This document shows positions 28,105 to 41,491 of a DNA stretch of 64,000 nt, one piece after another (the first letter of the stretch is position 1; each line of letters starts with the position of its first letter). The notes beneath the pieces are model-generated. The model was not told where the DNA came from, made no database searches, and worked only from the letters and a program-made list of their open reading frames with translations. Both the position numbers and the translations under genes were made by a program. Source of the DNA: an uncultured Candidatus Saccharibacteria bacterium (GTDB lineage Bacteria > Patescibacteriota > Minisyncoccia > Phycocordibacterales > UBA9973). The stretch is from assembly GCA_964502615.1 (NCBI GenBank), contig CAZCXF010000001.1:151516-215515 (forward strand), read 5' to 3'.

Positions 28105-29541
28105 CTACTCCATTATAGTAATATCAGAAGCTTTTATATTGTTATCTATTTCATCAGAAAAATGATTTTTCCTAACTAGAAGAACAGTAATTATACCGAT
28201 AAGTATTATTAAAGCAAGGCCTATAATACTCATTGATTTATTCGATATTGAGGTTATAGAGTTTCCTGCACTTGCACTTATATTGTTCAAGTCAATAATA
28301 TTTGAATCTCTATTTTTCGAATTAAGATTTGCCTTTTCACTATAATCACTTACCATACTAGATTTCTTATAATTTGGATAAGTATTTAGTATCTTTCCAG
28401 TTATATCTTCTAGAGTTAAATATTTTACATCTTCGTAATCAAAACCAGTTAGCTTAGAAGAGATTTTTACCTTGCTATTAGGAAGTATTATAGTGCCAGT
28501 TGGTATATCGAAAGATTTTAAGTAACTCCTTAAAACCCAGTGAGATATGTCTAACTCATAATTTGATTTATTGTAAAGTTCGATATAAGGATCTGATGCA
28601 TCACCCACAGAACTAATAGATATTTCTGAAGATAGAACTTTGAGAATAAGTCTATCTGTGGCTTGCGGTTCCTTCTCAAATGGATTTGAATAGTAAGACA
28701 AGGAAAGAACATAATCCCCTGGATATAAATAAATATGTTCAAACTTCTTTTGTTCGCTCATAGAGAAACTTGTACCGTCGCCAAAATTCCAAGCAAATCT
28801 ACCAGAAACAATTGGTTCTTTTCTTAAACCCGTAGTGCGAAAATCAATTTCAAGGGGTAAACCAGCAAACGTAGTATTTTTAGCTAAAATATTTGTGGTT
28901 ATTTTAGTAACTTCAATTTCCTTTTTTGTATTTGATCTTATATCTGTGTTCGTAGAATTCCCTCCAGTACCTGTATCCACACCACCCCCTGAACCACCTC
29001 CGCCATTTCCTCCACCACCCCCACCACTTGTTTGATTCTGAACACCTGGTGTAGGAGTTGCACCTCCCCATGAACTATTTATTTTTTGGAGAGAACTACC
29101 ATCTCCAGCTCCACCTTGACTTGAAGTAAAAGATACCTGGCTTACTATATTTAAATCTGGATCTTTTAAAGCAATAGTTTCTCCGTCGTTACTTAATCCC
29201 GTCCAACTACTATCAAAAAGTAGTCCTGAGTAATTTGGCCAATCAACTCGAAACTTTGCTGAATCTTGAGTTATAACTGCATAGCCACCTGCAGGAATAC
29301 TTGAATTACCTTGTGGAACAAGTGAGTGCTTAGTATTGTCAGAGAAGAAATACCAATGCGAAAAATCAGTGCTTTCATTACCATTGTTGTAAACCTCTAC
29401 CCATTCGCGACCAGTATCAGTACCGTCGAGATCATACATTATTTCTGTAATCTCAAAAGAAGCGCTTGCAAGATGAGACCAAGATAAGAATAAAAATATA
29501 GTTATTAATATAATTTTTGAAATTCTTCCAAAAACTTTCAT
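28105..29541 (-). CDS. Secreted lamin-tail-domain (LTD) protein with a Gly-rich linker and a C-terminal TM anchor
   Basis: Signal peptide, then 'ITEIMYDLDGTDTGREWVEVYNNGNESTDFSHWYF', the LTD signature. A poly-Gly stretch follows and a hydrophobic helix sits near the C-terminus. Confidence 0.65.
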   Translation of the reverse strand: MKVFGRISKIILITIFLFLSWSHLASASFEITEIMYDLDGTDTGREWVEVYNNGNESTDFSHWYFFSDNTKHSLVPQGNSSIPAGGYAVITQDSAKFRVDWPNYSGLLFDSSWTGLSNDGETIALKDPDLNIVSQVSFTSSQGGAGDGSSLQKINSSWGGATPTPGVQNQTSGGGGGGNGGGGSGGGVDTGTGGNSTNTDIRSNTKKEIEVTKITTNILAKNTTFAGLPLEIDFRTTGLRKEPIVSGRFAWNFGDGTSFSMSEQKKFEHIYLYPGDYVLSLSYYSNPFEKEPQATDRLILKVLSSEISISSVGDASDPYIELYNKSNYELDISHWVLRSYLKSFDIPTGTIILPNSKVKISSKLTGFDYEDVKYLTLEDITGKILNTYPNYKKSSMVSDYSEKANLNSKNRDSNIIDLNNISASAGNSITSISNKSMSIIGLALIILIGIITVLLVRKNHFSDEIDNNIKASDITIME

Positions 29542-29545
29542 AAAA

Positions 29546-31939
29546 TTATTCTTCTAATATTTTTCTTAAAACTTCTTCGGGAACCTCTTTTTTAGGCTGA
29601 GGTTTCTGCCAAGAATTATTATTTGCAGGAATATTATTAGGAACTACCTGATCAGTATTTTGTGGTTGTGATGAATTTACTGGCTTAGATTCAATTTTTT
29701 GAATTATGGGAACCTCTATTTTAGGTGGCATTGGTACCTCTGGTTTCGGGGGAATCTGTACTTCAACTTTTGGAGGAACAGGGATTAGTGGTTCTACTTT
29801 TGTCTCAACCTTTGGTTCTATTTTTGGCTCTTCTACAACTATTTTCGATTCTTTTATAGGTTCAGGAATAGTATTACTGATAGAAATAGACTCTGGAGCC
29901 CTTACTTCAGGTATTTTTATAACCGGTTGTTCAACTTTTGGTTTAATCTCTTCTAGAATAGGTTTTACTTCCACTGGTTTAACTTCAACTTTAGTAACCT
30001 CTGCGGGTTTTGTTTGAGGTGGAGCAACTTTGGCCAATAAATCTTTAAGTGAAGCTTTTTTCTCTTCAGAAGCTTCTTTGGTTGGTACAGATACAGTTGG
30101 AATATTAGTTTCTGGTTTTTTTAAAGTTGAAAGTGATACCGGAGTAGGAGTTTCTTTTTTTATTTCAACGACAGGTGGATTAGTAGGTTGTTTTTGAGAT
30201 CTATCCCCGCCAATTTTTTCTAGCAATCCTTTCAGTAGTGGAGATGGACCAGAATGTTTCTTTTCAGTTTGATTATTATTTCTCTGAAAATTATTGGTGT
30301 TATTGTTTTTGTTAAATGGTGGTCGTCCTTGCCCAGACTGGTTTTGGTTGGGAGTAAATCCGTTTTTATTAGGGGCCTTATTACCACCAGCATCAGTAAA
30401 CTCAATACCTAGCATTGCAAGAGGTGAAGTAGAATTCTTTTCTTCTTGACGTGCAGAGCGAGAAGCTACGAATCCAGTCTGTGGCTTTAACTCACCACTT
30501 TTAATTTTAAACATACAGTCTTTACAATACACTGGCCTACCCTCTTTAGGCTCAAAAGGGACCATTATAGACTTACCACAATTTGAACAATCTGCTTTAT
30601 ATTTTGCTTCACCTTCAACAGTCTGAAGTGTTCCACTCCATTTATTTATTTCGGCTTCAACTTCTTCACGTGGACGAGCATAGAGTTTCCTTGATGACTC
30701 TATTATTTTTTCTTTGACTCCTGCTGAAGGATCAATCTTAAGAGGTGGTAATGTACTTGCAGAAAAAGGTCTACTTGTAACACCATCAATCATGAGCTTT
30801 AGATATATGTGGTAGTTTGGAAGATTAACTAGATCCTGAGCGGTAAATTCTGGTTCAAATTCTTTTTCAATAAATTCTGCATCATCAGCACCAACTCGAA
30901 AAATTATCATAGTTCCAACGTTTCCGAAAACTGCATCTCTTACGGCTGTACCATTTTCATTTGAAAGCTGAGCCGTGTATTGGTGAGCAATTATAAGATT
31001 TAGGCGGTATTTACGAGCTTCGGAAAGAATATTTGCAAAAGAATCAGTTGCAAAGTTTTGGAACTCATCCACATATAGGTAGAAATCTTTACGTTCATTT
31101 TCTGGTATACGCACACGTTCCATCGCAGCAAGCTGGATCTTGGTAATAATCATACCTCCAAGAAGCGCAGAGTTGTCTTCACCTACACGTCCTTTTGAAA
31201 CATTTACAAGGAAAATCTTCCCTTCGTTCATTATCTTGAAAATATCAATTGTAGATTTAGATTGACCAACTACGTTACGGATGATTGAAGTTGATAGGAA
31301 TTGTCCAACTTTGTTTTGAATCGGGGCAATTGCTTCATTTCTAAACTGTTCACGCCATTGTTCGTACTCATGAACCCAAAAGGCTTTGACCACGGGGTCT
31401 TTTAAGTTGCCAATAATCATTTGACGATAGTCTTTGTCTACGAGAAGTCTTGGAATACCTAGGAGTGTTGTACCTGGAGTATCAAGAAGTGCCAAGATTG
31501 CGTTATTTAGAATGTATTCCATACGAGAACTCCAAGCATTAGCCCAAATCTTGGTAAATATTCCCATAAGTCCAGAAGCGACTAAGTGTTTGTATTTTGG
31601 ATCATCTAGTGCAATAACATTGAAACCAACATTGAAATCAATATCTGCTGGGTTAAAGTATATTACGTCTTTGGCACGATGGTCAGGAATAAGGTGAAGA
31701 ATTTCTTCAACCAACTCTCCGTGTGGATCAACCACACAAACACCTTCCCCATTATTTATATTTTGAACTATTAGATTAGATAGGAGTACAGACTTACCGG
31801 TACCAGATTTACCGAGCACATACATATGTTGCCTTCTGTCTTTCCTCTTGATACCAAATATATTATTGGTACTGCGAAAATTGGTCTTAGCGAAGTAAGT
31901 TATATCTCGATTGTGTGGAATTTGGTTGTTCGGATCCAT
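29546..31939 (-). CDS. TraD/VirD4-like (FtsK/HerA superfamily) soluble P-loop ATPase with an internal Zn-ribbon and a long Pro/Lys/Glu-rich disordered C-terminal tail
   Basis: Walker A 'VLGKSGTGKS', Walker B 'FYLYVDEFQNFAT', coupling-protein-like 'SEARKYRLNLIIAHQYTAQL...GNVGTMIIFRVG'. There is a CxxC-x19-CxxC ribbon 'CSNCGKSIMVPFEPKEGRPVYCKDCMF' and about 300 aa of low-complexity PK/E-rich tail. It is a paralog of 38563..40041. Confidence 0.7.
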   Translation of the reverse strand: MDPNNQIPHNRDITYFAKTNFRSTNNIFGIKRKDRRQHMYVLGKSGTGKSVLLSNLIVQNINNGEGVCVVDPHGELVEEILHLIPDHRAKDVIYFNPADIDFNVGFNVIALDDPKYKHLVASGLMGIFTKIWANAWSSRMEYILNNAILALLDTPGTTLLGIPRLLVDKDYRQMIIGNLKDPVVKAFWVHEYEQWREQFRNEAIAPIQNKVGQFLSTSIIRNVVGQSKSTIDIFKIMNEGKIFLVNVSKGRVGEDNSALLGGMIITKIQLAAMERVRIPENERKDFYLYVDEFQNFATDSFANILSEARKYRLNLIIAHQYTAQLSNENGTAVRDAVFGNVGTMIIFRVGADDAEFIEKEFEPEFTAQDLVNLPNYHIYLKLMIDGVTSRPFSASTLPPLKIDPSAGVKEKIIESSRKLYARPREEVEAEINKWSGTLQTVEGEAKYKADCSNCGKSIMVPFEPKEGRPVYCKDCMFKIKSGELKPQTGFVASRSARQEEKNSTSPLAMLGIEFTDAGGNKAPNKNGFTPNQNQSGQGRPPFNKNNNTNNFQRNNNQTEKKHSGPSPLLKGLLEKIGGDRSQKQPTNPPVVEIKKETPTPVSLSTLKKPETNIPTVSVPTKEASEEKKASLKDLLAKVAPPQTKPAEVTKVEVKPVEVKPILEEIKPKVEQPVIKIPEVRAPESISISNTIPEPIKESKIVVEEPKIEPKVETKVEPLIPVPPKVEVQIPPKPEVPMPPKIEVPIIQKIESKPVNSSQPQNTDQVVPNNIPANNNSWQKPQPKKEVPEEVLRKILEE

Positions 31940-31982
31940 AGATTACCCTCATTATAACCTATTTATATATATAAAAGGAATA

Positions 31983-32561
31983 CTATTTACTATTGTGAGT
32001 AAGTCTATATTCTACAATCTGGCTAAATAAAATACCTGTTGAAAGTATAAGAGCATAGAACATTATAGAAACTGGATATGAGGTAGGAATAGATTTAAGC
32101 ATCCCTAGTATAAATGCCAATAACCAAGAACTTAGTGATATAGCCCCAAAAGCAAATGATAGTTTTCTAAGCTTTACGTATTTATGACGTGTATTGATAT
32201 CAGTGAAATTTATCTTTCTAAGAGCTGGGTGAACAACCCTTTGAAACATATAACCATTTACGATAATAACTGTTACTACAGTCATCTTTATTAAGAATTT
32301 AACTGAGTGTGAGTATTTTTCTGGATCAGAAAGAAAAAGAGTAATCCCACTTATAAAAATAAAAAATAAGCTAAACCAGATGACCTTAGATAAAATACTC
32401 AGTGTTTTATCTTCGTGAATATTTATCTTTTTATCTTTTATATAAATATTGAATAGAATATCAGATACTAAAGCAGCACCCATGCCTACAATCACAGAAA
32501 AGACATGAGCTATGATAGATATATATTTATACTCATTAAAAAATGCTATTGTTTCTTCCAT
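31983..32561 (-). CDS. Hypothetical polytopic membrane protein (4-5 TM)
   Basis: Hydrophobicity pattern. It lies between the Cys-rich paralogs and ATPase-1 with gaps of only 27 and 43 nt. Confidence 0.5.
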   Translation of the reverse strand: MEETIAFFNEYKYISIIAHVFSVIVGMGAALVSDILFNIYIKDKKINIHEDKTLSILSKVIWFSLFFIFISGITLFLSDPEKYSHSVKFLIKMTVVTVIIVNGYMFQRVVHPALRKINFTDINTRHKYVKLRKLSFAFGAISLSSWLLAFILGMLKSIPTSYPVSIMFYALILSTGILFSQIVEYRLTHNSK

Positions 32562-32588
32562 ATTTAATTAGTATACACGATTTTTTAA

Positions 32589-34283
32589 TTAATTCACTTC
32601 CTGTTGATAGCAGGATTCGCAATAAACTATATCGGGTTGATTCGGTTCGTAACTAGTTTGAAACTCATTTTTACAACCTTCTTTCATACATGAACGATTG
32701 TAAAGTTTTGGTTTATTTATAAATTTATAACGGTCTAAAAACCTACAGTTATGACATTTATGAGGCAGAGGTAACCCAATCCGTTTATAAAATTGCAATT
32801 CAATCGGAACTATTCTATATGCTTTTTTACAATTTACGCATGCAATAATTTCTTTTGTAATATCTTCTGAGACTTCAGTAATTGAATCTGGCAAATCGTT
32901 ACCGCTTATAGTAGTCTGAAATTCACGTGCATTTGGCTCGCGCCACAAGAAACCTTTCTGCAATGCTTCTTCTTTGCTTATTGGGACATAATCTTGTGCC
33001 AAACTTTCGTTGTATGCCAAGGGTGAAAAGGAAGATGGGAAGAAGTCCCCATATGTATATACTTTTCCTTGCTCATCGACATATGGCATATCTTTCATAT
33101 GCTGTACTATCTTTGGAACAAGCGCTTCGTATTCTTCCTTTGAATACTGTTTATTTAAAATGCAGTATTGTTTTTTCTTTAGACTAACACAACCAAATGA
33201 ATTTGATGCACCAAAACAATAACCACAGTATTCTAGATCTCGGACATTCCCAAAACAATTGAAACAGTATTTTAATCCATAAGCTCCATCTCCACATGTC
33301 ATGCATTCGTAGGCATTTTCTATTCCCATAAAAAGTTGGCAGGAATCATAGGAGTTAGCGGCTTTCAAAACACTTATCTGTACATAACGTAAGTTCTCAG
33401 CATTCTCTACAGAAAAAGAGTCTCTTACATTTTTTGAATCACTAACCCTATCCCCTGTACAATTTAAATTTCTTGAACCATGATAGTATTTTACTGGGAA
33501 TTTTTGCCAAAAATCTGGAATAGTATCATTTAATTGTTTAATTGATTCATAGGAACTTAGATTTATTTCAGATATTCTTTTCTCATATTCTTCTCTAGAG
33601 AGCGGCTCATTAAAAAAATAATAAGATTTACCACGTAGATTTACGCAACCAAAACAATTTGTACATCCACGAAGCCCTTTGCTAAACCATACATCCACAC
33701 AACTTTCACAATCAACAGAAAACATAGTTTGGTAAGATTTGTACACCATTACACATTCATAGCATAGCTCGTCATCTATCATTTCATGGGAATCAAATGA
33801 ATTTTTTACATTAGTTACCTTTACTAAATATCCAGAATCTTCTATAAAATCTGCATCAAAACATAGATATGCATTCTTTAGCCTCCCTGCCTCATTGCAA
33901 TAGTCTGAATTTATCATAAATCCAGCAGAAGACTTTGCCATAATAGGTACACGGTTGAGTAGTGATTGGAATTGTTTGAAGAATGGTACTGAGAAATCGT
34001 ATTCTACCCCGTAATCCAATGCTTCCCATTCGTCACCATACCAATAAGTGGTTTCATATGTTTGCATAGGTGCTTCGGCTGGAATACCTGAAAAGGAGTC
34101 ATTACCAGTATGAGCATCTTTTCTTCGAAATAAATTGCGTTCATTTCTCCAAGTCAACCGACGAACCATACGACACTCCGGACACCAAGTAGGTACTGGA
34201 ACCTTCATCTTTTCGTAGAAAGAAAAATCATCCGGTTCGATATTGAAATCTTTTTTACAATTTTGGCAGTTTTTTGTTTCCAT
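32589..34283 (-). CDS. Cysteine-rich multi-zinc-ribbon protein, paralog C (564 aa)
   Basis: N-terminal CxxC-x22-CxxC ribbon ('NCQNCKKDFNIEPDDFSFYEKMKVPVPTWCPECR'), internal CxxCxGC modules and C-terminal ribbons ('CVNCKKAYRIVPIELQFYKRIGLPLPHKCHNCR', '...VYCESCYQQEVN'). The 2nd ribbon is lost relative to paralogs A and B. Confidence 0.8.
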   Translation of the reverse strand: METKNCQNCKKDFNIEPDDFSFYEKMKVPVPTWCPECRMVRRLTWRNERNLFRRKDAHTGNDSFSGIPAEAPMQTYETTYWYGDEWEALDYGVEYDFSVPFFKQFQSLLNRVPIMAKSSAGFMINSDYCNEAGRLKNAYLCFDADFIEDSGYLVKVTNVKNSFDSHEMIDDELCYECVMVYKSYQTMFSVDCESCVDVWFSKGLRGCTNCFGCVNLRGKSYYFFNEPLSREEYEKRISEINLSSYESIKQLNDTIPDFWQKFPVKYYHGSRNLNCTGDRVSDSKNVRDSFSVENAENLRYVQISVLKAANSYDSCQLFMGIENAYECMTCGDGAYGLKYCFNCFGNVRDLEYCGYCFGASNSFGCVSLKKKQYCILNKQYSKEEYEALVPKIVQHMKDMPYVDEQGKVYTYGDFFPSSFSPLAYNESLAQDYVPISKEEALQKGFLWREPNAREFQTTISGNDLPDSITEVSEDITKEIIACVNCKKAYRIVPIELQFYKRIGLPLPHKCHNCRFLDRYKFINKPKLYNRSCMKEGCKNEFQTSYEPNQPDIVYCESCYQQEVN

Positions 34284-34284
34284 A

Positions 34285-35979
34285 TTAATTTACTTCTTTT
34301 AAATAGCAAGACTCACAATAAATAATCTCTGGCCGACCTGGGGCGTAACTTGTATCAAATTCATTATGACAGCCACCCTTCATACAATTCCTATGCCAGA
34401 GTTTGAAAGGATTTCTTCTAGCAACACGTCTAGAATGTCGACAATGGAAACATCTTCTAGGTATTGGGATTTCCATTTTCCTATATAGTGTAAGTTCATC
34501 TCCGACAATTTTATAATTCCTATTACAATCAATACATTTTAAAACCTCACTTGTTATAGAGTCTGGGACATCAAAAATACTCTCTGGAATATTTTCTGGC
34601 ACTAACGTCTCGCGACCGACTGTACGCTGTATATTATCTTGCCATTTATAGCCTAATGAAATTGCCTCTTCTTTATTTAGTGGGAAATGTTCCATAGCTA
34701 TAGTTTCATTGTACCCAAAAGGAGCAATCTCAACTGGGTAAAATTCTCCATATTTATACACTAATCCACGTTGATCTATATAAGGCATTGTATTCATATG
34801 CTCTATAATCTTAGGCAATATTTCTTCATATTCTTCTTTGGTATATTCTTTATTTAGGATGCAATACTTTGCATTGCGTAAAGAAACACATCCAAAAATA
34901 TTTTTTGAAGAATGGCAATGTTGAGAATATTGAATGTTTTGGCTCTTTACAGAAAAAACACCAAAAAAATTATTAAATGAGTGATCGCACACTACAGAAT
35001 CGTAACATTCTTCAATCTCGCCAGACATGGTTATATCATAAGAACCTTTGTTGTCATTTGAATACTCAGCATATTTACAATTCTCTAATTTTTTTACTAA
35101 AAAAGAATTCTTAGTGTTTTTACTATAAGAAACGATATCTCCAGTACAGTCAAAATTCTGCTTCATCCAAGCATATCTTCTAGGATAATGCAGAATAAAT
35201 TCATCATATTCTTTTTGAGCTTTTTCTACTCCACTGAAAGTGTCTAATCTATATTCCTTCAAAATATTTTCATATTCCTCTTTTTCGTATTGTTTATTCC
35301 TAAAATGGTATCTTTTGTTTCTAAGACCAGTACACATGAAGCAATCGGAGCAGTTCTGACAATCGTAAAGAAATTGTGAGTTTATACAAGATCTACTAAA
35401 AAATGAGTGCTTAAGCATGTAGCCATGCGAACAATTTATACATTCATATAAATACTCAGCTTCTGCCATATTTATCATCCCGTCTATAATATTTTTTCCA
35501 GCAAGAATATAGAAGCTATACATTATGTTCTCTATATGCCAACCTGAAAAAACCATATAACAGTTCTTAGCAAACCATATGTCGTGAGTATATTCACAAT
35601 TTAAACTAGCTATTCCATCGTCATTTACAACCGCCATCTGTGGAACTCTATAAAGTAATTCTTTGAATTGTTCAAAAAATGGTTTTGAAAAATCATAGTC
35701 CTGTGCATAATCTTTTGGGTCCCATTTGTCACTCCACCAGCATTTATTGCAATAAACTATAACTCCAGAATCAGGAGAATAAATTGATACGACAGACTTT
35801 TGGCAAAGTTCACAAGTGCGTGAATAAAGAGATAAACTGTTGCGCCAAGCATGACGCCTCTGACTTCGACATTCTGGGCAAAAGGTAGGCGCTGGAACTT
35901 TTATCTTTCCATAGAAAGAAAAATCATCCGGTTCAATGGTAAAATTATTTTTACAATTTTGGCAGTTTCGGGTTTCCAT
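34285..35979 (-). CDS. Cysteine-rich multi-zinc-ribbon protein, paralog B (564 aa)
   Basis: Same architecture and collinear with A and C, separated from C by 1 nt and from A by 2 nt. It has the second ribbon 'CELCQKSVVSIYSPDSGVIVYCNKCWW'. Confidence 0.8.
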   Translation of the reverse strand: METRNCQNCKNNFTIEPDDFSFYGKIKVPAPTFCPECRSQRRHAWRNSLSLYSRTCELCQKSVVSIYSPDSGVIVYCNKCWWSDKWDPKDYAQDYDFSKPFFEQFKELLYRVPQMAVVNDDGIASLNCEYTHDIWFAKNCYMVFSGWHIENIMYSFYILAGKNIIDGMINMAEAEYLYECINCSHGYMLKHSFFSRSCINSQFLYDCQNCSDCFMCTGLRNKRYHFRNKQYEKEEYENILKEYRLDTFSGVEKAQKEYDEFILHYPRRYAWMKQNFDCTGDIVSYSKNTKNSFLVKKLENCKYAEYSNDNKGSYDITMSGEIEECYDSVVCDHSFNNFFGVFSVKSQNIQYSQHCHSSKNIFGCVSLRNAKYCILNKEYTKEEYEEILPKIIEHMNTMPYIDQRGLVYKYGEFYPVEIAPFGYNETIAMEHFPLNKEEAISLGYKWQDNIQRTVGRETLVPENIPESIFDVPDSITSEVLKCIDCNRNYKIVGDELTLYRKMEIPIPRRCFHCRHSRRVARRNPFKLWHRNCMKGGCHNEFDTSYAPGRPEIIYCESCYLKEVN

Positions 35980-35981
35980 GA

Positions 35982-37682
35982 TTAATTAAACTCTTGTTGG
36001 TAGCATTTTTCACAATAAACTATTTCAGGTCTATCTTTGGAAAAAGCAGTAGTAATATTACTATTACATTTAGCACAGTTCCTTGACCATAAGTGTATTG
36101 GATTGAGGCGAGAAAAATGAGCTTTTTGCCTACACTGCGGACAGTTATGTGGAACTGGGAGATTCATTTTTTTTAATAAATTAAGTTCAAGTGGTCCAAT
36201 TTTATATCCACGACCACATTTTTCACATTTTATAATTTCACTAAGAATAGATTCAGTAATTTGGTTAATGGTATTAAATAGTTCTGTGGCATTTATTGTT
36301 GTTTTATATTCCAATTGATCAGCTTCATGCCACATATATCCCATAGAAAGGGCTTCTTCTTTTGTTTTTGGGAAAAACTTCATTACATCAGATTCGTTAT
36401 AGCCAAATAAATTAAATTTAATAGGATAAAATTCGCCATAACTCCACACACGACCCAACTCATCTACATAAGGATTTTTTTTCATATCTTCAACAATTTG
36501 AACTTTGAGTTTCTCGTATTCTTCCTTTGAATATTCTTTATTCAAAATACAGTAGGATTTGCGTTTTAGATTTACGCATCCGAAGACATTTTTACAAGCA
36601 GAGCTCCACATAGAATATTCAATATTCATACTATCTGGGTAGCAACTATTAGAAAATTTTATATTACTTGCTTTCTCGCCAGTCGAGTGAGCCTCATATA
36701 TGAGGTCAACATTTGCACCCCACCCAGAGTAATCGTAGCAATCACGAGCCGTAGGAACTGTCACGAACTGAACATATCTAGAGTCTTCCACACTAGTACA
36801 AAGGTATAAATCTTGTGAATTTTTTGATTCAAATACATACTCGCCAGTAATATTCAAATTCATTGAATTGCCGGTGTAAGATCGATAAGGTTTTGTGAGC
36901 CAAAATGCGCGAGAACTTTCAATTAAGCCTTGTAGAGTATTCCATGAATTCAGGCCTAATTCTTTTACTTTAAGATCATAATCTTCCTTTGAATACTTTT
37001 CATTAAAAATACAATATGATTCTCCTCGTAAATTTGCACATCCTATACAATTTGTACAATTGTAACAATTACGAGAAAACCAAACATCTGTACATGCATC
37101 ACATTCTTCTGAAAAAAAAGTTTGGTAACATTTATTAATCCCTAGTGAGTTATAGCAAAGTTCCGATTCGCGAGCTCTCATACAATCAGAGGAATCTTTC
37201 AGTTGTAAAATAATTGAGGAGTGAGTAACGTTTTCAGCGTAATCTGCCCAAAAAGTAAGATAACAATTTCTTAACCAAGATGCTCCATTGCAGTATTCAG
37301 AATTTATCATTGAAGGACCGAGTGTTTCTGTCGCAACCCATGGTGTCTTTCTTGAAAGTTCATAAAGTTGTTCGAAAAAGTTTCTATTAGGATCATAATC
37401 CATAGCATACTCAGTACCATCCCAATCATCTGCCCACCAACATTCTGAACAGTAAACTATAATAGGGTTATCTTTATGATACATAGAGAGTGTTCTTTTT
37501 TTACATTTATCACAATCACGAAAATATACCGTCCAAACAGTTTTTGAAGCATTCCTCCGAATAATTCTACATTCTGGACACCATGTAGGATGAGGCACAT
37601 TGATTTTTTGATAGTAGAGTTTATCCCTCTCATCAATAATAAAATCTGTTTTGCAATTTTGGCAGTTTCTAGTTTCGTTCAT
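35982..37682 (-). CDS. Cysteine-rich multi-zinc-ribbon protein, paralog A (566 aa)
   Basis: Same architecture. It includes a CxxCxxCxxC module 'CYNCTNCIGCANLRGESYCIFNEKYSKEDYD' and the repeat 'GCVNLKRKSYCILNKEYSKEEYE'. It overlaps the upstream nucleotidyltransferase gene by 14 nt. Confidence 0.8.
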   Translation of the reverse strand: MNETRNCQNCKTDFIIDERDKLYYQKINVPHPTWCPECRIIRRNASKTVWTVYFRDCDKCKKRTLSMYHKDNPIIVYCSECWWADDWDGTEYAMDYDPNRNFFEQLYELSRKTPWVATETLGPSMINSEYCNGASWLRNCYLTFWADYAENVTHSSIILQLKDSSDCMRARESELCYNSLGINKCYQTFFSEECDACTDVWFSRNCYNCTNCIGCANLRGESYCIFNEKYSKEDYDLKVKELGLNSWNTLQGLIESSRAFWLTKPYRSYTGNSMNLNITGEYVFESKNSQDLYLCTSVEDSRYVQFVTVPTARDCYDYSGWGANVDLIYEAHSTGEKASNIKFSNSCYPDSMNIEYSMWSSACKNVFGCVNLKRKSYCILNKEYSKEEYEKLKVQIVEDMKKNPYVDELGRVWSYGEFYPIKFNLFGYNESDVMKFFPKTKEEALSMGYMWHEADQLEYKTTINATELFNTINQITESILSEIIKCEKCGRGYKIGPLELNLLKKMNLPVPHNCPQCRQKAHFSRLNPIHLWSRNCAKCNSNITTAFSKDRPEIVYCEKCYQQEFN

Positions 37683-38118
37683 TTTTATTCAGAATAGACG
37701 ATTTAAATTTCTCTGGTTTATAAGCTTCTCCTGTTTTAATTTCAATTTTAGGAATAATCTTCTTTTTTATCGCTTTACTTATACTATCAAATAGAGCTTG
37801 CTGGTCATAGCCTAAAAATATTAAATCTGGTTTAACTTCTTTTAAAATATTGTAAGTATCTTCGTTGGGATCACCAAGATAAGCAATATCAATATCTGGA
37901 GTATCCATAATAGATTTAATTCTAAAAGCTTCATCGTTTACTGGCATTTTCCCTTTTAGTTTTAAAACTACTTCATCCCTGGCAACTATAGCAACAAGCC
38001 TATCTGCGTATTTTTTAGCTTCACGTATAAAAGCAAGGTGACCTTCGTGAATCCCATCAAAAGTACCAAATATTGTTACTGTTTTATAATTCATTACTGT
38101 ATTTCTTGAGCCATCCAT
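37669..38118 (-). CDS. Cytidylyltransferase-like (HxGH) nucleotidyltransferase, RibL/TagD/HldE-domain-II-like
   Basis: 'TIFGTFDGIHEGHLAFIREAKKYADRLVAIVARDEVVLKLKG', the (T/H)xGH nucleotidyltransferase motif. The 149-aa size fits. Confidence 0.65.
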   Translation of the reverse strand: MDGSRNTVMNYKTVTIFGTFDGIHEGHLAFIREAKKYADRLVAIVARDEVVLKLKGKMPVNDEAFRIKSIMDTPDIDIAYLGDPNEDTYNILKEVKPDLIFLGYDQQALFDSISKAIKKKIIPKIEIKTGEAYKPEKFKSSILNKNERN

Positions 38119-38399
38119 TCTTTATAATCATGATTCATCCGACGGATATCAACTCCCGCAATAAGGGGCACACTGTAAGTATGATTGTCATTTATAAGTT
38201 GGGATACTGGATCGAGCTTTGATTCGAGTGTAGTCACTAATAACATTGCTTGGGTTACACATTGCATTCCACCCTCCCAGTTATAGCAAGATTTGATGGG
38301 CCAAAAATCCACACAGGCACCTATTTTGGCTTGTATTATAAGTGATCCGAGCTTCTCGGCTTCATCCATATCCTTACATGTTGTATATATAAAAACCAT
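38094..38399 (-). CDS. cutA: CutA1 divalent-cation-tolerance family protein
   Basis: 'KIGACVDFWPIKSCYNWEGGMQ...HTYSVPLIAGVDIRRMNHDYKEWM' matches the CutA fold signature. It overlaps the downstream nucleotidyltransferase gene by 25 nt. Confidence 0.75.
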   Translation of the reverse strand: MVFIYTTCKDMDEAEKLGSLIIQAKIGACVDFWPIKSCYNWEGGMQCVTQAMLLVTTLESKLDPVSQLINDNHTYSVPLIAGVDIRRMNHDYKEWMAQEIQ

Positions 38400-38562
38400 A
38401 AAATATAAGGGTTTTTAGACTACGACCTTTACTCTTTAAGTTTAGCACTAAACCAGCAAAAAGAAAGTCCTGAGAAAGATGAAAAATATACAAATTATAA
38501 GCGGTGTCGGAGCCCCCGTAGAGAGGGTAAAGCGTGAATAATTTGTATAATCTTTTGTTTTA

Positions 38563-40041
38563 TTATATTAATGGTTCACTAGCTTTTTCTTCAACAACTT
38601 TTTTCTCTTCTTTGTCGCCATAAACAGAATTTTTACCACCAGTAATAGCAGCTTTTTCTTGAGCTGAGCGAATAATTGTAGACTCTTCTTCTGCAATTAG
38701 GCGCTGTGCTTCCCCTGCAGGAATAGCATAAGTATTTCGAGACGCTTCAATAACACGATCACGATAAGATGGATGAGTCGCAGGTAGAACGCGAAGAGTT
38801 TCAGCAGAGAATGGATCATATGATTCCCCGTCGATTGTCATCTTCACATAAAATTCCCCTACTCCTAAGTTGATCATATCTTTCACATCAAATATTGGAG
38901 AAAATTCTGGCTTGAGTTTTACAGCATCATCACCTCCCACGCGGAAAGAAATAATAGAACCTACGTTACCGAGCACTGCTGCTTCAACTTTTGCTGGAAT
39001 CTGCCCTACGTACTGGTGAGCCATTGTTAAGTTGATTGCATACTTACGAGCCTCGGAAAGCAAGTTTTCAAATGTATCTGTTACTACGTTTTGGAACTCA
39101 TCCACATATAAATAAAAATCTTTGCGGAGATGTGCTTCCATTTTGGCACGAGCCATTCCAGCTTGTTTAATCTTAGTCAAAAACATCGCTCCAAAGAAAG
39201 ATGAATTCTCTTCTCCGATTTTTCCTTTTGATAGATTAATCAAAAGAATTTTTTGATCATTCATGATTTGCTCTATATCAATTTTATTTTCTTTTTGTCC
39301 GAAAATATTTCGAAGCATTGGATCAGATAGAAATTGACCGAGCTTGTTAACAAGCGGGATGATAGCATCAGTATCAAATTTCTCAGACCAGTCAGCAAAT
39401 TCGATAGCCCAGAATCTTTTAACCATGTCGTCCTCGATATATTCCACCACCTTCTGACGATAGTTACGATCAGTAAGCATAGATATCATTCCTCGCATAG
39501 TAGCGTAAGGATAGTCTAGAAGCGCAAGTGTGGTAAAACGAAAAACGTGCTCAAGACGAGGAGTCCAGTTTGCTCCGAATTGTTTACGGAGAACTTCAAT
39601 CAGACCTTGGGTAAGCTGATGTTTAAATGTTGGGTCAACATTTGCGAGAGGATTGAAAGATGATGGAAAATCTATATCTCCAGGATCAATAATACAGACA
39701 TCGTTTATACGATTCTCAGGGATAAAACCTAAAATATCATCAATAAATTCCCCGTGAGGATCTATGACGCAAACTCCGTGTCCATATGCAATATCTTGGC
39801 GAACCATGAGCTCTTGGAGTTTTGATTTACCTACCCCAGACTTACCGATAATATACAAATGTCTTCTACGATCTACACGCTTTATACCGAAAACGAACTT
39901 CTTTTCTTCAAGAGCTGCAACGTAATTTGTTCTACCAATAAAAGAAACCTCATTAGGATCAACTTGTCCAAGTACAGGTAAATCCGGAGGCGGCGGAGCA
40001 TATTTAATTATTTGAATCTTGTTGGGCTTGTTGAGTGCCAT
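38563..40041 (-). CDS. TraD/VirD4-like (FtsK/HerA superfamily) soluble P-loop ATPase, paralog of 29546..31939 without the Zn-ribbon and tail
   Basis: Shared N-terminal 'FGIKRVDRRRHLYIIGKSGVGKS', 'VCVIDPHGE', 'FYLYVDEFQNVVT' and 'SEARKYAINLTMAHQYVGQI...GNVGSIISFRVG'. Confidence 0.7.
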   Translation of the reverse strand: MALNKPNKIQIIKYAPPPPDLPVLGQVDPNEVSFIGRTNYVAALEEKKFVFGIKRVDRRRHLYIIGKSGVGKSKLQELMVRQDIAYGHGVCVIDPHGEFIDDILGFIPENRINDVCIIDPGDIDFPSSFNPLANVDPTFKHQLTQGLIEVLRKQFGANWTPRLEHVFRFTTLALLDYPYATMRGMISMLTDRNYRQKVVEYIEDDMVKRFWAIEFADWSEKFDTDAIIPLVNKLGQFLSDPMLRNIFGQKENKIDIEQIMNDQKILLINLSKGKIGEENSSFFGAMFLTKIKQAGMARAKMEAHLRKDFYLYVDEFQNVVTDTFENLLSEARKYAINLTMAHQYVGQIPAKVEAAVLGNVGSIISFRVGGDDAVKLKPEFSPIFDVKDMINLGVGEFYVKMTIDGESYDPFSAETLRVLPATHPSYRDRVIEASRNTYAIPAGEAQRLIAEEESTIIRSAQEKAAITGGKNSVYGDKEEKKVVEEKASEPLI

Positions 40042-40089: not shown

Positions 40090-41370
40090 ATGGCAAAAGC
40101 TAAAGAATCTATCTTAAAAGAAGGTGAAGAATACATTGAGAAGCTCGGTCCAGGTCTGATAACGGGTGCGGCAGATGACGACCCTTCTGGAATTGCTACA
40201 TATTCACAAACTGGTGCTCAGTATGGCACTACTCTCCTTTGGCTCGCTGCATGGACTCTGCCACTTATGGCAATAGTTCAAGAAATGTGTGGACGTATTG
40301 CACTTGTTACTGGGCAAGGACTTGCTTCAAATATAAAAAGAGTTTATTCAAAGAAGGTTTTATACTTTTGTACTATTCTTTTATTTATCGCAAATACTTT
40401 AAACATCGGAGCAGACCTTGGAGCTATTGCAAAATCTATCCAACTCATCACGCCTTCTGCTTCTTTTGTTTTTACTATTGTAGTCGTTGGACTCATATGC
40501 TTATTACTACAAATATACATTCCATATAAAAAATACGCTCGAGTACTAAAGTGGCTAGTGATAAGTTTATTTGCATATATTGCTACTGGACTAATAATTC
40601 ATATGGACTGGTCACAGCTTATGTATGATGGACTGATACCGAGCATTGAATTCTCAAAGACTCAGATACTTTTAATAACAGCAATTTTAGGAACAACAAT
40701 CTCACCTTACCTTTTCTTTTGGGAAACATCACAAGAAGTTGAGGAGCAGATTGCTGAAGGTCTCGTTACTGATGAATCTCGTCTAGGTACAACAAAAAAA
40801 GAAATTAAAAAAATGCGCATAGATATTTGGAGTGGAATGATATTTTCAAATCTTGTAATGTTCTTCATTATCGCAGTTTGTGCCAACACATTATTCACTC
40901 ATGGAATTACAAATATAAATACAGCAAGCGATGCTGCTCTTGCTCTTGCACCGTTTGCTGGCAAATGGGCAACTTATTTATTTGCTATTGGTATTATAGG
41001 GACTGGAATGCTAGCAATACCTATACTCGCGGGATCTACCTCTTATGCTATATCTGAGAGTTTTGGCTGGAAGGAAGGTCTATATCGTAAACTATCTGAA
41101 GCAAAAGCTTTCTACGCGATTATAAGTGTTTCTATTGCTATTGGGATACTTATAAACTTCATTGGTATAGACCCTATAAAAGCCTTAATATACTCCGCTA
41201 TTGCAAATGGAATAGTGGCTCCTGTCATTATTATCTTTATTGTTCACATAAGTGGAAGCAAGAAAATCATGGGCCACTTCAAAAACTCAAGACCGATAAA
41301 TATAATAGGCTGGATAATAACAATACTCATGAGTATTACAGCTCTAGCTGCTATCTATTCCCTATTTTAG
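40090..41370 (+). CDS. mntH: NRAMP-family divalent metal (Mn2+/Fe2+) transporter
   Basis: 'GPGLITGAADDDPSGIATYSQTGAQYGTTLLW' NRAMP consensus and about 11 TM helices. Confidence 0.85.
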   Translation: MAKAKESILKEGEEYIEKLGPGLITGAADDDPSGIATYSQTGAQYGTTLLWLAAWTLPLMAIVQEMCGRIALVTGQGLASNIKRVYSKKVLYFCTILLFIANTLNIGADLGAIAKSIQLITPSASFVFTIVVVGLICLLLQIYIPYKKYARVLKWLVISLFAYIATGLIIHMDWSQLMYDGLIPSIEFSKTQILLITAILGTTISPYLFFWETSQEVEEQIAEGLVTDESRLGTTKKEIKKMRIDIWSGMIFSNLVMFFIIAVCANTLFTHGITNINTASDAALALAPFAGKWATYLFAIGIIGTGMLAIPILAGSTSYAISESFGWKEGLYRKLSEAKAFYAIISVSIAIGILINFIGIDPIKALIYSAIANGIVAPVIIIFIVHISGSKKIMGHFKNSRPINIIGWIITILMSITALAAIYSLF

Positions 41371-41411: not shown

Positions 41412-41484
41412 GGGCCGTTAGCTCATCTGGTAGAGCACCTCATTTGCAATGAGGGGGTGGCAGGTTCGAGTCCTGTACGGTCCA
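41412..41484 (+). tRNA. tRNA-Ala (anticodon UGC)
   Basis: Acceptor GGGCCGT/ACGGTCC with a G3:U70 pair, anticodon stem CCTCA/TGAGG with loop UUUGCAA, T-arm GGCAG-GTTCGAG-TCCTG. Confidence 0.85.
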
Positions 41485-41491
41485 CTCGTAT

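Follow-up and report, generated by a model that had tools for sequence, protein, structure and literature searches.

There are many VirD4 homologs in the genomes of Patescibacteria. A survey from 2025 counted 5,713 of these in 2,918 genomes, with 148 of them near virB4, and its authors noted that exaptation of the homologs "cannot be ruled out" (PMC12102498). A zinc finger of the CxxC-x17-CxxC type has also been described, and this domain was found experimentally to bind zinc in small proteins of Methanosarcina (PMC12704099). Both components are represented in the locus presented here, which lies in a stretch of 64,000 nucleotides of contig CAZCXF010000001.1. The whole of this stretch was analyzed and is referred to as the window. 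Eight genes on its minus strand encode, in the order of transcription given by the open reading frame (ORF) coordinates, ATPase492, CutA, an HxGH nucleotidyltransferase (NTase), three paralogous cysteine-rich proteins (CysA, CysB, and CysC, together the Cys proteins), a small membrane protein (TM192), and ATPase797. The two ATPases belong to the abundant orphan VirD4 homologs of Patescibacteria, which are known as a class. Nothing was found in the family libraries, among solved structures, or in the searchable literature that matches the core of the Cys proteins, their family, the tandem arrays that it forms, or its linkage with the ATPases, and we regard the family and this linkage as new in kind. 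The linkage of Cys arrays with the ATPase492/ATPase797 pair, CutA, and the NTase is recurrent and non-obligate.

Linkage of the Cys Genes and the ATPases

The linkage was explored in 160 loci, identified here by L numbers. Eighty were anchored on a Cys gene, in contigs from one genome per species, and 80 on an ATPase gene, in metagenome contigs. Two to nine Cys genes are present in 44 of the 80 Cys-anchored loci, and all 582 Cys matches are on the same strand. Adjacent pairs of Cys genes were counted 88 times across the 160 loci, mostly with gaps of 50 nt or less. An ATPase homolog was found within 10 kb in 21 of the 80 Cys-anchored loci, and its matches were co-directional in every case (63 of 63). 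After the ORFs of the fetched loci were clustered all against all, the ATPase family was the second most common neighbor of Cys, following an RluA-type pseudouridine synthase, and Cys was the third most common neighbor of the ATPases. Ordinary single-copy genes, such as those for DnaK, SecD, and AspRS, are near Cys in 0–6 of the 80 loci. The per-locus list of the ATPase-anchored set was also read by type. Where the central gene is of the ATPase492 type (49–84% identity), a Cys gene is present in 17 of 31 loci, and the loci lacking one are mostly short contigs.

The genes are often immediate neighbors. An ATPase gene is followed by a Cys gene in 14 loci, and a Cys gene by an ATPase gene in another count of 14. 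CutA follows an ATPase gene in 10 loci, and it recurs directly downstream of ATPase492-type genes. CutA is followed by Cys in seven loci and by the NTase in five. The NTase is followed by Cys in eight loci, six of which have the two genes overlapping by 11–17 nt. The ATPase gene also precedes DnaJ (nine loci) and a gene for a surface protein with an LTD domain (six loci).

Several arrangements of these genes were found. In the arrangement of the window, an Nramp gene is divergent from ATPase492-CutA-NTase-Cys(n)-(TM192)-ATPase797-LTD, as is also seen in L033, L053, and L056. A second order is DnaK-ATPase797 type-Cys(n)-ATPase492 type-DnaJ (L006, L087, L092, L093, and L102). A third is f2-f3-f16-ATPase-CutA-Cys(n), found in L039, where tblastn gives nine Cys matches, and in L075; f2, f3, and f16 are gene families that are considered below. 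A fourth is SecD-SecF-f2-f3-...-Cys-...-ATPase-Cys-NTase-ATPase (L077). In total, the adjacency of Cys and ATPase occurs in at least five gene orders and is kept down to about 50% ATPase identity (L107, L113, and L133). The initial annotation of this DNA had allowed that the adjacency might be incidental, as it would be if the genes did not co-occur in related genomes. The Cys and ATPase genes do recur together there, on the same strand and in many gene orders.

Other neighbors of the two families were seen in the same loci. The ATPase pair, with or without Cys, is located between dnaK and dnaJ in L006, L028, L067, L087, L088, L091–L093, and L102. This placement hints at co-expression with the heat-shock operon. 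In many other loci of the candidate phyla radiation (CPR), SecD, SecF, f2, f3, and f16 precede the ATPase (L039, L075, L090, L094, L095, L099, L103, L104, L109, and various loci from L120 to L160). Family f2 is 345 aa with a sigma-70 region 4 and a HARE-HTH domain. Families f3 (461 aa) and f16 (177 aa) are membrane proteins for which no Pfam or NCBIfam match was found. None of the three is in the window. The set of f2, f3, and f16 may represent ancestral partners of the orphan ATPases. A family of 114 aa with no confident family match, f48, is inside or beside the Cys arrays of L038, L067, L070, L098, L107, and L108.

The Cys Protein Family

The Cys family is large. CysB has more than 7,600 scored homologs, and CysA has more than 4,200. 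With E ≤ 1e-30 and 50% identity, 2,035 clusters were obtained, nearly all of them of 540–600 aa. Among the best 120 homologs of each, identity to the window copy is 61–84% for CysB and 56–91% for CysA. Where the listed homologs have a source name, it is "hypothetical protein," with two exceptions that are evident mislabels, a Txe/YoeB toxin label and a "CxxC-x17-CxxC domain-containing protein." The UniRef label of the members that were checked is "Uncharacterized protein." The source taxa include Nomura-, Pacei-, Jorgensen-, Lipton-, Giovannoni-, Staskawicz-, Brenner-, Sungii-, and Moranii-bacteria and Minisyncoccia. The other records are a batch of metagenome-assembled genomes labeled Saccharibacteria and two labeled as bins outside the CPR. 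By source names, the family is almost confined to Patescibacteria of the Paceibacteria group.

A core of approximately 400 residues has no relative in Pfam, NCBIfam, PADLOC, PHROGs, PDB sequence and profile searches, or Foldseek against the PDB. With the Cys model, Foldseek returned nothing from the PDB at E < 6. The PDB sequence and profile searches gave weak LIM-like matches to the last 50 residues only, which belong to the C-terminal pair of fingers (E = 0.0018). In PHROGs there was one weak match (E 2e-4) to a family of undescribed function. No Cys relatives were found in 2.9 million viral contigs, and literature searches brought up no paper on the family. It had been suggested in the initial annotation that the Cys proteins could not be placed in any characterized family, and after these searches the core is still unassigned.

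The three window copies differ considerably. They are mutually 39–41% identical, CysB being 39% identical to CysA. Single-linkage clustering of Cys copies at 50% identity gave no clean orthologue groups. CysC has orthologs that are 82–88% identical in the same slot of the close relatives L033, L056, and L079. In the solenoid region, identity is 28–46% between paralogs vs. 59–70% inside orthologue groups, from which the paralogs appear to be old and each of them under purifying selection. In many genomes, the closest homolog of CysA is a single Cys gene in the order pilM-pilN-pilO-x-rluD-Cys-rplS (L004–L034, about 12–19 loci).

Architecture of the Cys Proteins

Each Cys protein begins with a pair of zinc fingers. 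Two internally duplicated repeats of a solenoid-like kind follow, and after these come a small alpha/beta domain, which is acidic, and another pair of zinc fingers. The N-terminal pair consists of a zf_Tbcl-like finger (C7, C10, C35, and C38) and a CxxC-x17-CxxC finger (C57, C60, C78, and C81). The C-terminal pair, C486, C489, C514, and C517 with C536, C539, C557, and C560, is homologous to it. All sixteen of these zinc-ligand cysteines are invariant or near-invariant, and in the zf_Tbcl finger the four cysteines and the Arg residues that follow are invariant in 134 sequences. The first solenoid region has a nine-residue C-Y-x-x-F repeat that leads to a CxxCxxCxxC cluster (C206, C209, C212, and C215) and a "YSKEEYE" helix. 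The second has a repeat of about 13 residues with the same type of ending. The two halves of the solenoid are homologous (E = 4e-10), and their repeats carry a ladder of cysteine and tyrosine. Cysteine makes up 5.5–6% of all residues.

The window copies themselves score below the Pfam cut-offs for these fingers. Residues 4–45 of CysA score 18.9 bits with PF13451 (zf_Tbcl), for which the cut-off is 24, and CysA scores 16.3 with PF23477, for which it is 27. Some orthologs have a precomputed match to the first of these, and many have one to PF23477. The AlphaFold2 (AF2) model of CysA has a predicted local distance difference test (pLDDT) of 81.9 and a predicted template modeling score (pTM) of 0.85. 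Its structural neighbors, beta-helix and beta-roll proteins, are weak only. A hydropathy scan of the three proteins found no transmembrane-like segment. They are acidic overall, and only the C-terminal zf_Tbcl module is strongly basic, with a net charge of +7.

The Two ATPases

Both ATPases are matched in Pfam by the group of DUF87 (HerA), T4SS-DNA_transf, TrwB_AAD_bind, and TraG-D_C. A nucleotide-binding domain of the FtsK/HerA type, with both Walker motifs, is present in their core. In the translations, the Walker A motifs are GKSGVGKS and GKSGTGKS, the Walker B motif FYLYVDEFQN is common to ATPase492 and ATPase797, and the block ARKY...AHQY...GNVG...FRVG is in both. ATPase797 contains CSNCGKSIMVPFEPKEGRPVYCKDC, and the Cys proteins contain (I/P)VYCxxC signatures; each of the motifs quoted in the initial annotation is thus present. 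The ATPases are 45% identical over approximately 440 residues. With the values given above for the Cys proteins, this bears out the paralogy that had been proposed for both sets. ATPase797 is a paralog of ATPase492 to which a zinc finger and a tail of about 320 residues, rich in Pro, Lys, and Glu, are added. The finger, at residues 447–478, scores 50.4 bits with PF23477 (cut-off 27) and 53 with TIGR04272 (cut-off 36).

By fold, the ATPases are members of the VirB4/VirD4/HerA clade and are not assignable to VirD4 specifically. The TraD/VirD4-like identity first given to them holds at the level of the clade. The NCBIfam models for coupling proteins (SXT_TraD, CD1115, TraD_Ftype, and conj_TOL_TraD) gave about 50 bits against cut-offs of 250–650. 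Matches to PF10412 TrwB_AAD_bind (52 and 21.8 bits) span the region of the all-alpha insertion, and VirB4 and DptH match at least equally well overall. A helical block is present at residues 137–247 of the AF2 model of the ATPase. PDB profile and sequence searches with ATPase492 gave no match at E ≤ 0.01. The ATPases had been described as soluble and without N-terminal transmembrane helices. The hydropathy scan agrees, as no transmembrane-like segment was found in either one (19-residue Kyte-Doolittle maxima of 1.22 and 1.23, with a threshold of 1.6). No signal segments were found in the ATPases or the Cys proteins, and both are cytoplasmic in character.

ATPase492 is among the most conserved proteins of the lineage. 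Its best 120 non-redundant homologs are all 82–99% identical to it. In syntenic loci it is 92–95% identical, compared with 71–85% for Nramp and approximately 60–77% for the NTase. The source names among the best 120 are mostly "hypothetical protein," with some "DUF87 domain-containing" and "type IV secretion system DNA-binding domain-containing" and one "HerA-like." The PADLOC matches of the ATPases, to mad8, HerA, and AbiO, are weak, and those to HerA are also partial. Strong matches (E 1e-61 and 1e-49) were found to phrog_5156, a phage family of 824 positions with function undescribed, of which the ATPases cover only the C-terminal half. A split coupling protein was considered and rejected, as f3 does not match the N-terminal half of phrog_5156.

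Gene Spacing and Transcription Signals

The features of the locus are listed in Table 1. From ATPase492 to ATPase797, the ORF coordinates place the gaps at 163, −25, −14, +2, +1, +27, and +43 nt. The initial annotation gave identical values for the eight minus-strand genes. It also took the tiny co-directional gaps as a sign of an operon, and this part was not sustained. The minus strand holds 47 of the 56 genes of the window, and the median gap between genes on the same strand is 27 nt. Tight co-directional packing is therefore the genomic background here, it does not discriminate in this genome, and it is no evidence of an operon. There is a second co-directional run, of 14 genes, in the window. 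The run under study itself extends past position 29546, where the LTD/PKD gene starts 4 nt after ATPase797 and is followed by a methyltransferase gene. The eight genes also do not stand as a unit, since TM192 is confined to close relatives and the LTD protein accompanies ATPase797. On the whole, what the initial annotation had observed stood, and its interpretation did so only in part.

Promoter and terminator scans gave counts at or below the shuffle expectation and are silent on transcription units. The gap between ATPase492 and cutA, put forward as the only one that could hold a promoter, is indeed the only sizeable non-coding stretch of the run, and the promoter scan there was uninformative. 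No Rfam family was found in it by the Rfam scan, which identified three tRNAs in the window and nothing else.

Table 1. Positions in the window of the genes and other features discussed in the text.
Feature	Position	Strand	Description
ATPase492	40041..38563	-	492 aa, P-loop ATPase of the VirB4/VirD4/HerA clade, no transmembrane segment
Gap between ATPase492 and cutA	38400..38562		163 nt, AT-rich intergenic; sole sizeable non-coding stretch of the run
CutA (CutA1)	38399..38094	-	101 aa, small protein of the PII-like trimer family
NTase (HxGH nucleotidyltransferase)	38118..37669	-	149 aa, cytidylyltransferase-like; shares 25 nt with cutA and 14 nt with CysA
CysA	37682..35982	-	566 aa, 34 Cys, all four zinc modules
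CysB	35979..34285	-	564 aa, 32 Cys
CysC	34283..32589	-	564 aa, 31 Cys; second N-terminal zinc finger lacks its cysteines (alignment)
TM192	32561..31983	-	192 aa, small polytopic membrane protein, about 5 transmembrane segments
ATPase797	31939..29546	-	797 aa; ATPase core (residues 1-445), zinc finger, Pro/Lys/Glu-rich tail of about 320 residues
CxxC-x17-CxxC zinc finger of ATPase797 (PF23477/TIGR04272)	30506..30601	-	residues 447-478
LTD/PKD surface protein	29541..28105	-	478 aa, signal-like N-terminus, C-terminal transmembrane anchor
Nramp metal transporter	40090..41370	+	divergent from ATPase492, 48 nt away
tRNA-Ala	41412..41485	+	follows Nramp
Leucyl-tRNA synthetase	6169..9027	-	952 aa
ORF of 526 aa	16591..18171	-	no Pfam match at 1e-5
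ORF of 503 aa	25225..26736	+	HTH and enolpyruvyl transferase domains
ORF of 1069 aa	43989..47198	-	no Pfam match at 1e-5

Neighboring Genes and Genomic Context

CutA is matched by PF03091 over residues 3–98 of 101 with 84.3 bits (cut-off 22.4), and the NCBIfam equivalog was missed (81 vs. 120). The translation of the NTase contains GTFDGIHEGH, and it scores 46.1 bits with PF01467 (cut-off 21) and 49.3 with TIGR00125 (cut-off 27.7). No substrate-specific equivalog model of Pfam or NCBIfam was passed by the NTase. For TM192, the hydropathy scan indicates about five transmembrane segments, and there is a weak match to DUF2214 below the cut-off. Its family (f60) is limited to L033, L035, L056, and the window's own metagenome copies. 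The LTD/PKD protein has a PF00932 LTD domain (81 bits) and a PKD domain. Homologs of it follow ATPase797-type genes in six other loci (L033, L035, L053, L056, L119, and L150) with gaps of 2–39 nt. PADLOC gave no match for the three Cys proteins, TM192, the NTase, CutA, or the LTD protein. On the other side, the divergent arrangement of Nramp and ATPase492 is kept in the close relatives L026, L033, L053, L056, and L079.

The remainder of the window is housekeeping. Genes for LepA, MurJ, LeuRS, YchF, MiaA, Alr, MurB, Ddl, UvrABC, Tgt, MreBC, and aminoacyl-tRNA synthetases are present. Pfam scans of 40 window ORFs returned housekeeping, surface, or unassigned proteins and no type IV secretion system, VirB4, relaxase, or competence family. 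It had been stated that the gene mix does not fit a conjugation, competence, or Tad locus, and with this housekeeping remainder and neither a VirB4 nor a relaxase in it, the statement is upheld. A conjugative or mobile element was rejected on the housekeeping context, the flat base composition, and the lack of a relaxase and VirB4. For lack of channel components in the neighborhood, the locus is also taken not to be a type IV secretion system.

Four other genes of the window have unusual features. The leucyl-tRNA synthetase has an internal NUDIX match (PF00293, residues 413–508, E = 6e-9) after the editing domain, which is an unusual insertion. The ORF of 503 aa combines HTH_3/HTH_31 with an EPSP_synthase/MurA-type enolpyruvyl transferase domain, as given by the precomputed Pfam matches of an identical gene in L081. 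Two long ORFs, of 1069 and 526 aa, were without Pfam matches, and the second of these sits in the stretch of the window with the lowest GC (16–18 kb, GC 0.287).

Possible Functions of the Locus

The Cys paralogs may form a lineage-specific set of adaptors or scaffolds with zinc fingers, acting together with the orphan ring ATPases. We favor this explanation, and we hold it only tentatively. The ATPases would form ATP-driven rings that act on a polymer. Their homology with the VirB4/VirD4/HerA/FtsK clade would make DNA the likelier polymer, and protein is possible. The Cys paralogs would bind the substrate or dock on the motor as adaptor or scaffold subunits. Each paralog keeps its own conserved solenoid surface and could for that reason have a partner specific to it. 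CutA and the NTase are frequent companions of the set of ATPases and Cys proteins. A fuller version is a lineage-specific cytoplasmic machine of Paceibacteria in which arrays of ancient Cys paralogs, each conserved in its own right, would serve two orphan ring ATPases as interchangeable, substrate-selecting adaptors or as subunits of a hetero-oligomeric scaffold, with CutA and the NTase as accessory proteins. We consider this version somewhat unlikely.

A number of observations weigh against a partnership of this kind. No ATPase is present within 10 kb in 59 of the 80 Cys-anchored loci. Distant loci of the ATPase797 type contain a Cys gene in only 2 of about 50 cases by the per-locus list. The most common single context of Cys is the order pilM-pilN-pilO-x-rluD-Cys-rplS, which is without an ATPase and usually has a gap of 4 nt between rluD and Cys. 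Some arrays of five to eight Cys copies are without an ATPase in view (L061, L052, and L069). Part of the Cys-ATPase enrichment could be inherited synteny, because the genomes are densely co-directional and the loci are not independent of one another in phylogeny. In the Cys AF2 model, the confidence of the solenoid parts is low (pLDDT 50–73). Nucleic-acid binding by the Cys proteins also does not appear to be strongly implied, because they are acidic overall and have a single basic module.

The shared zinc finger must be counted among these points as well. In the initial annotation, the (I/P)VYCxxC signature common to ATPase797 and the Cys proteins was taken to link them physically or functionally. 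The signature is that of the generic PF23477/TIGR04272 finger. A search for the pattern CxxC-x14-22-CxxC found 42 ATPase homologs that carry the finger, and 20 of the 42 are in loci without a Cys gene. The shared zinc ribbon was rejected as evidence that the ATPase and the Cys proteins are specifically linked. The finger is an ancestral feature of the ATPase797-type subtype and a generic domain.

A rival explanation is that there is no functional link at all. The Cys family would have a cytoplasmic role of its own, for example one associated with RNA or the ribosome, and it would be near the ATPases by packing, inherited synteny, and tandem duplication. The co-directional background of the window (47 of 56 genes, median gap 27 nt), the 59 loci that lack an ATPase, and the pilMNO-rluD-Cys-rplS context all favor this. 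The other neighbors of the ATPases are housekeeping genes, those for SecDF, DnaK/J, TopA, EF-P, and MnmA. Against this explanation, the adjacency recurs in at least five different arrangements and is kept where the ATPase identity is as low as about 50%. The ATPase is also the second most common neighbor of Cys and Cys the third most common of the ATPases, whereas single-copy genes reach only 0–6 of 80 loci. The absence of any link is a serious possibility, although a somewhat unlikely one.

The Cys proteins could also be cargo or effectors of the coupling-protein-like ATPases. They would be exported by a type IV secretion or pilus machine whose genes are elsewhere, and the arrays would be a repertoire of effectors. 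In type IV secretion, VirD4-type ATPases are established as the receptors for substrates (PMC12857230). The type IV secretion systems of Patescibacteria are essential to them, and their VirD4 homologs are mostly encoded away from virB4 (PMC12102498). The tandem, diversified Cys paralogs look like effector arrays, and the lone Cys copy is downstream of pilMNO. The conservation of the Cys proteins speaks against this, since orthologs are 56–91% identical across many lineages and their surfaces are conserved per group, which is the mark of purifying rather than arms-race selection. The proteins have four structural zinc fingers, a conserved, structured C-terminus, and no signal peptide. In addition, no secretion channel genes are in the window, and coupling proteins are docked to the channel by a membrane anchor that is missing from the ATPases. 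We consider an export function improbable.

A role in metal handling is less probable again, and we regard it as very unlikely. With 31–34 cysteines, the Cys proteins would buffer or deliver zinc or another metal together with CutA and the divergent Nramp. CutA1 is recurrently between the ATPase and Cys genes, and the window and five other loci (L026, L033, L053, L056, and L079) have Nramp transcribed divergently from ATPase492. The proteins are rich in cysteine (5.5–6%) and have the extra conserved CxxCxxCxxC cluster, and the CxxC-x17-CxxC domain is one that binds zinc in Methanosarcina (PMC12704099). The linkage to Nramp, however, is restricted to close relatives, in which ATPase492 is 85–95% identical. 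Sixteen of the cysteines are structural ligands of the classical treble-clef type, and a multi-domain fold of 565 residues with paralog-specific surfaces exceeds what a metal buffer needs. Metal handling would also give the ring ATPases no role.

Finally, an anti-phage defense or mobile-element module built on a HerA/DptH-like ATPase, which the weak PADLOC matches to mad8, HerA, and AbiO and the phrog_5156 matches (E 1e-61 and 1e-49) might suggest, is highly improbable, given that ATPase492 is near-universal, 82–99% identical in its top homologs, and located among housekeeping genes, that the Cys proteins have no PADLOC match, one weak PHROG match (E 2e-4), and no relative in 2.9 million viral contigs, and that the base composition has no island signature.

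The Cys family is among the larger and better conserved families of Paceibacteria-type bacteria, which are a fast-evolving group, and one locus has nine copies. If the proposed partnership of Cys proteins and ATPases is true, it would provide a concrete and testable set of partners for the orphan ATPases and a foothold on the core cell biology of organisms that are not growable alone. If the fuller version given above holds, ultrasmall episymbiotic bacteria would have a previously unrecognized kind of system for handling nucleic acid or protein, and this would account for the thousands of VirD4 homologs that are kept away from secretion systems in Patescibacteria. If the link is only syntenic, the Cys family would still be a clear target for structural and biochemical work.

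Comparison with Known Systems

The type IV coupling proteins (VirD4, TrwB, and TraD) are the first group with which the window ATPases can be compared. Unlike these, the window ATPases have no N-terminal membrane anchor. They score about 50 bits where the curated cut-offs are 250–650, and no VirB4, relaxase, or channel genes are near them. Their genes are chromosomal, vertically conserved, and housekeeping-like. The window ATPases thus fail membership among the coupling proteins on anchor, curated models, and genomic context. To the C-terminal domain of VirB4, the C-domain of DptH/DndH, and HerA, the sequence identity is only 11–15%, and the N-terminal domain of VirB4 is missing. HerA and Dnd systems have partners such as NurA, Sir2, DUF4297, or Dnd proteins, none of which is among the genes adjoining the window ATPases. 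The adjoining genes encode CutA, the NTase, the Cys proteins, TM192, the LTD protein, and Nramp.

The solenoid of the Cys proteins can be compared to beta-helix and beta-roll proteins, that is, the LpxA-type left-handed beta-helix, the ice-binding proteins of insects and grasses, the YadA head, and the RTX nonapeptide roll. The Cys proteins are likewise repetitive, with repeats of nine residues (C-Y-x-x-F) and about 13 residues. They differ in having neither a hexapeptide nor a GGxGxD signature, and the model has a pLDDT of 50–73 in this region. LIM domains align weakly with the C-terminal pair of fingers (E = 0.0018).

The closest likeness for the fingers is found in the families PF23477/TIGR04272 and PF13451 zf_Tbcl. 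The window Cys copies are below the Pfam cut-offs of these families (18.9 vs. 24 and 16.3 vs. 27). ATPase797 carries a bona fide PF23477 finger, and the Cys proteins carry two pairs of zf_Tbcl and CxxC-x17-CxxC fingers with invariant cysteines. The proteins described so far with zf_Tbcl or CxxC-x17-CxxC fingers are small and single-domain, whereas in the Cys proteins the same fingers bracket a core of about 400 residues that is without a family.

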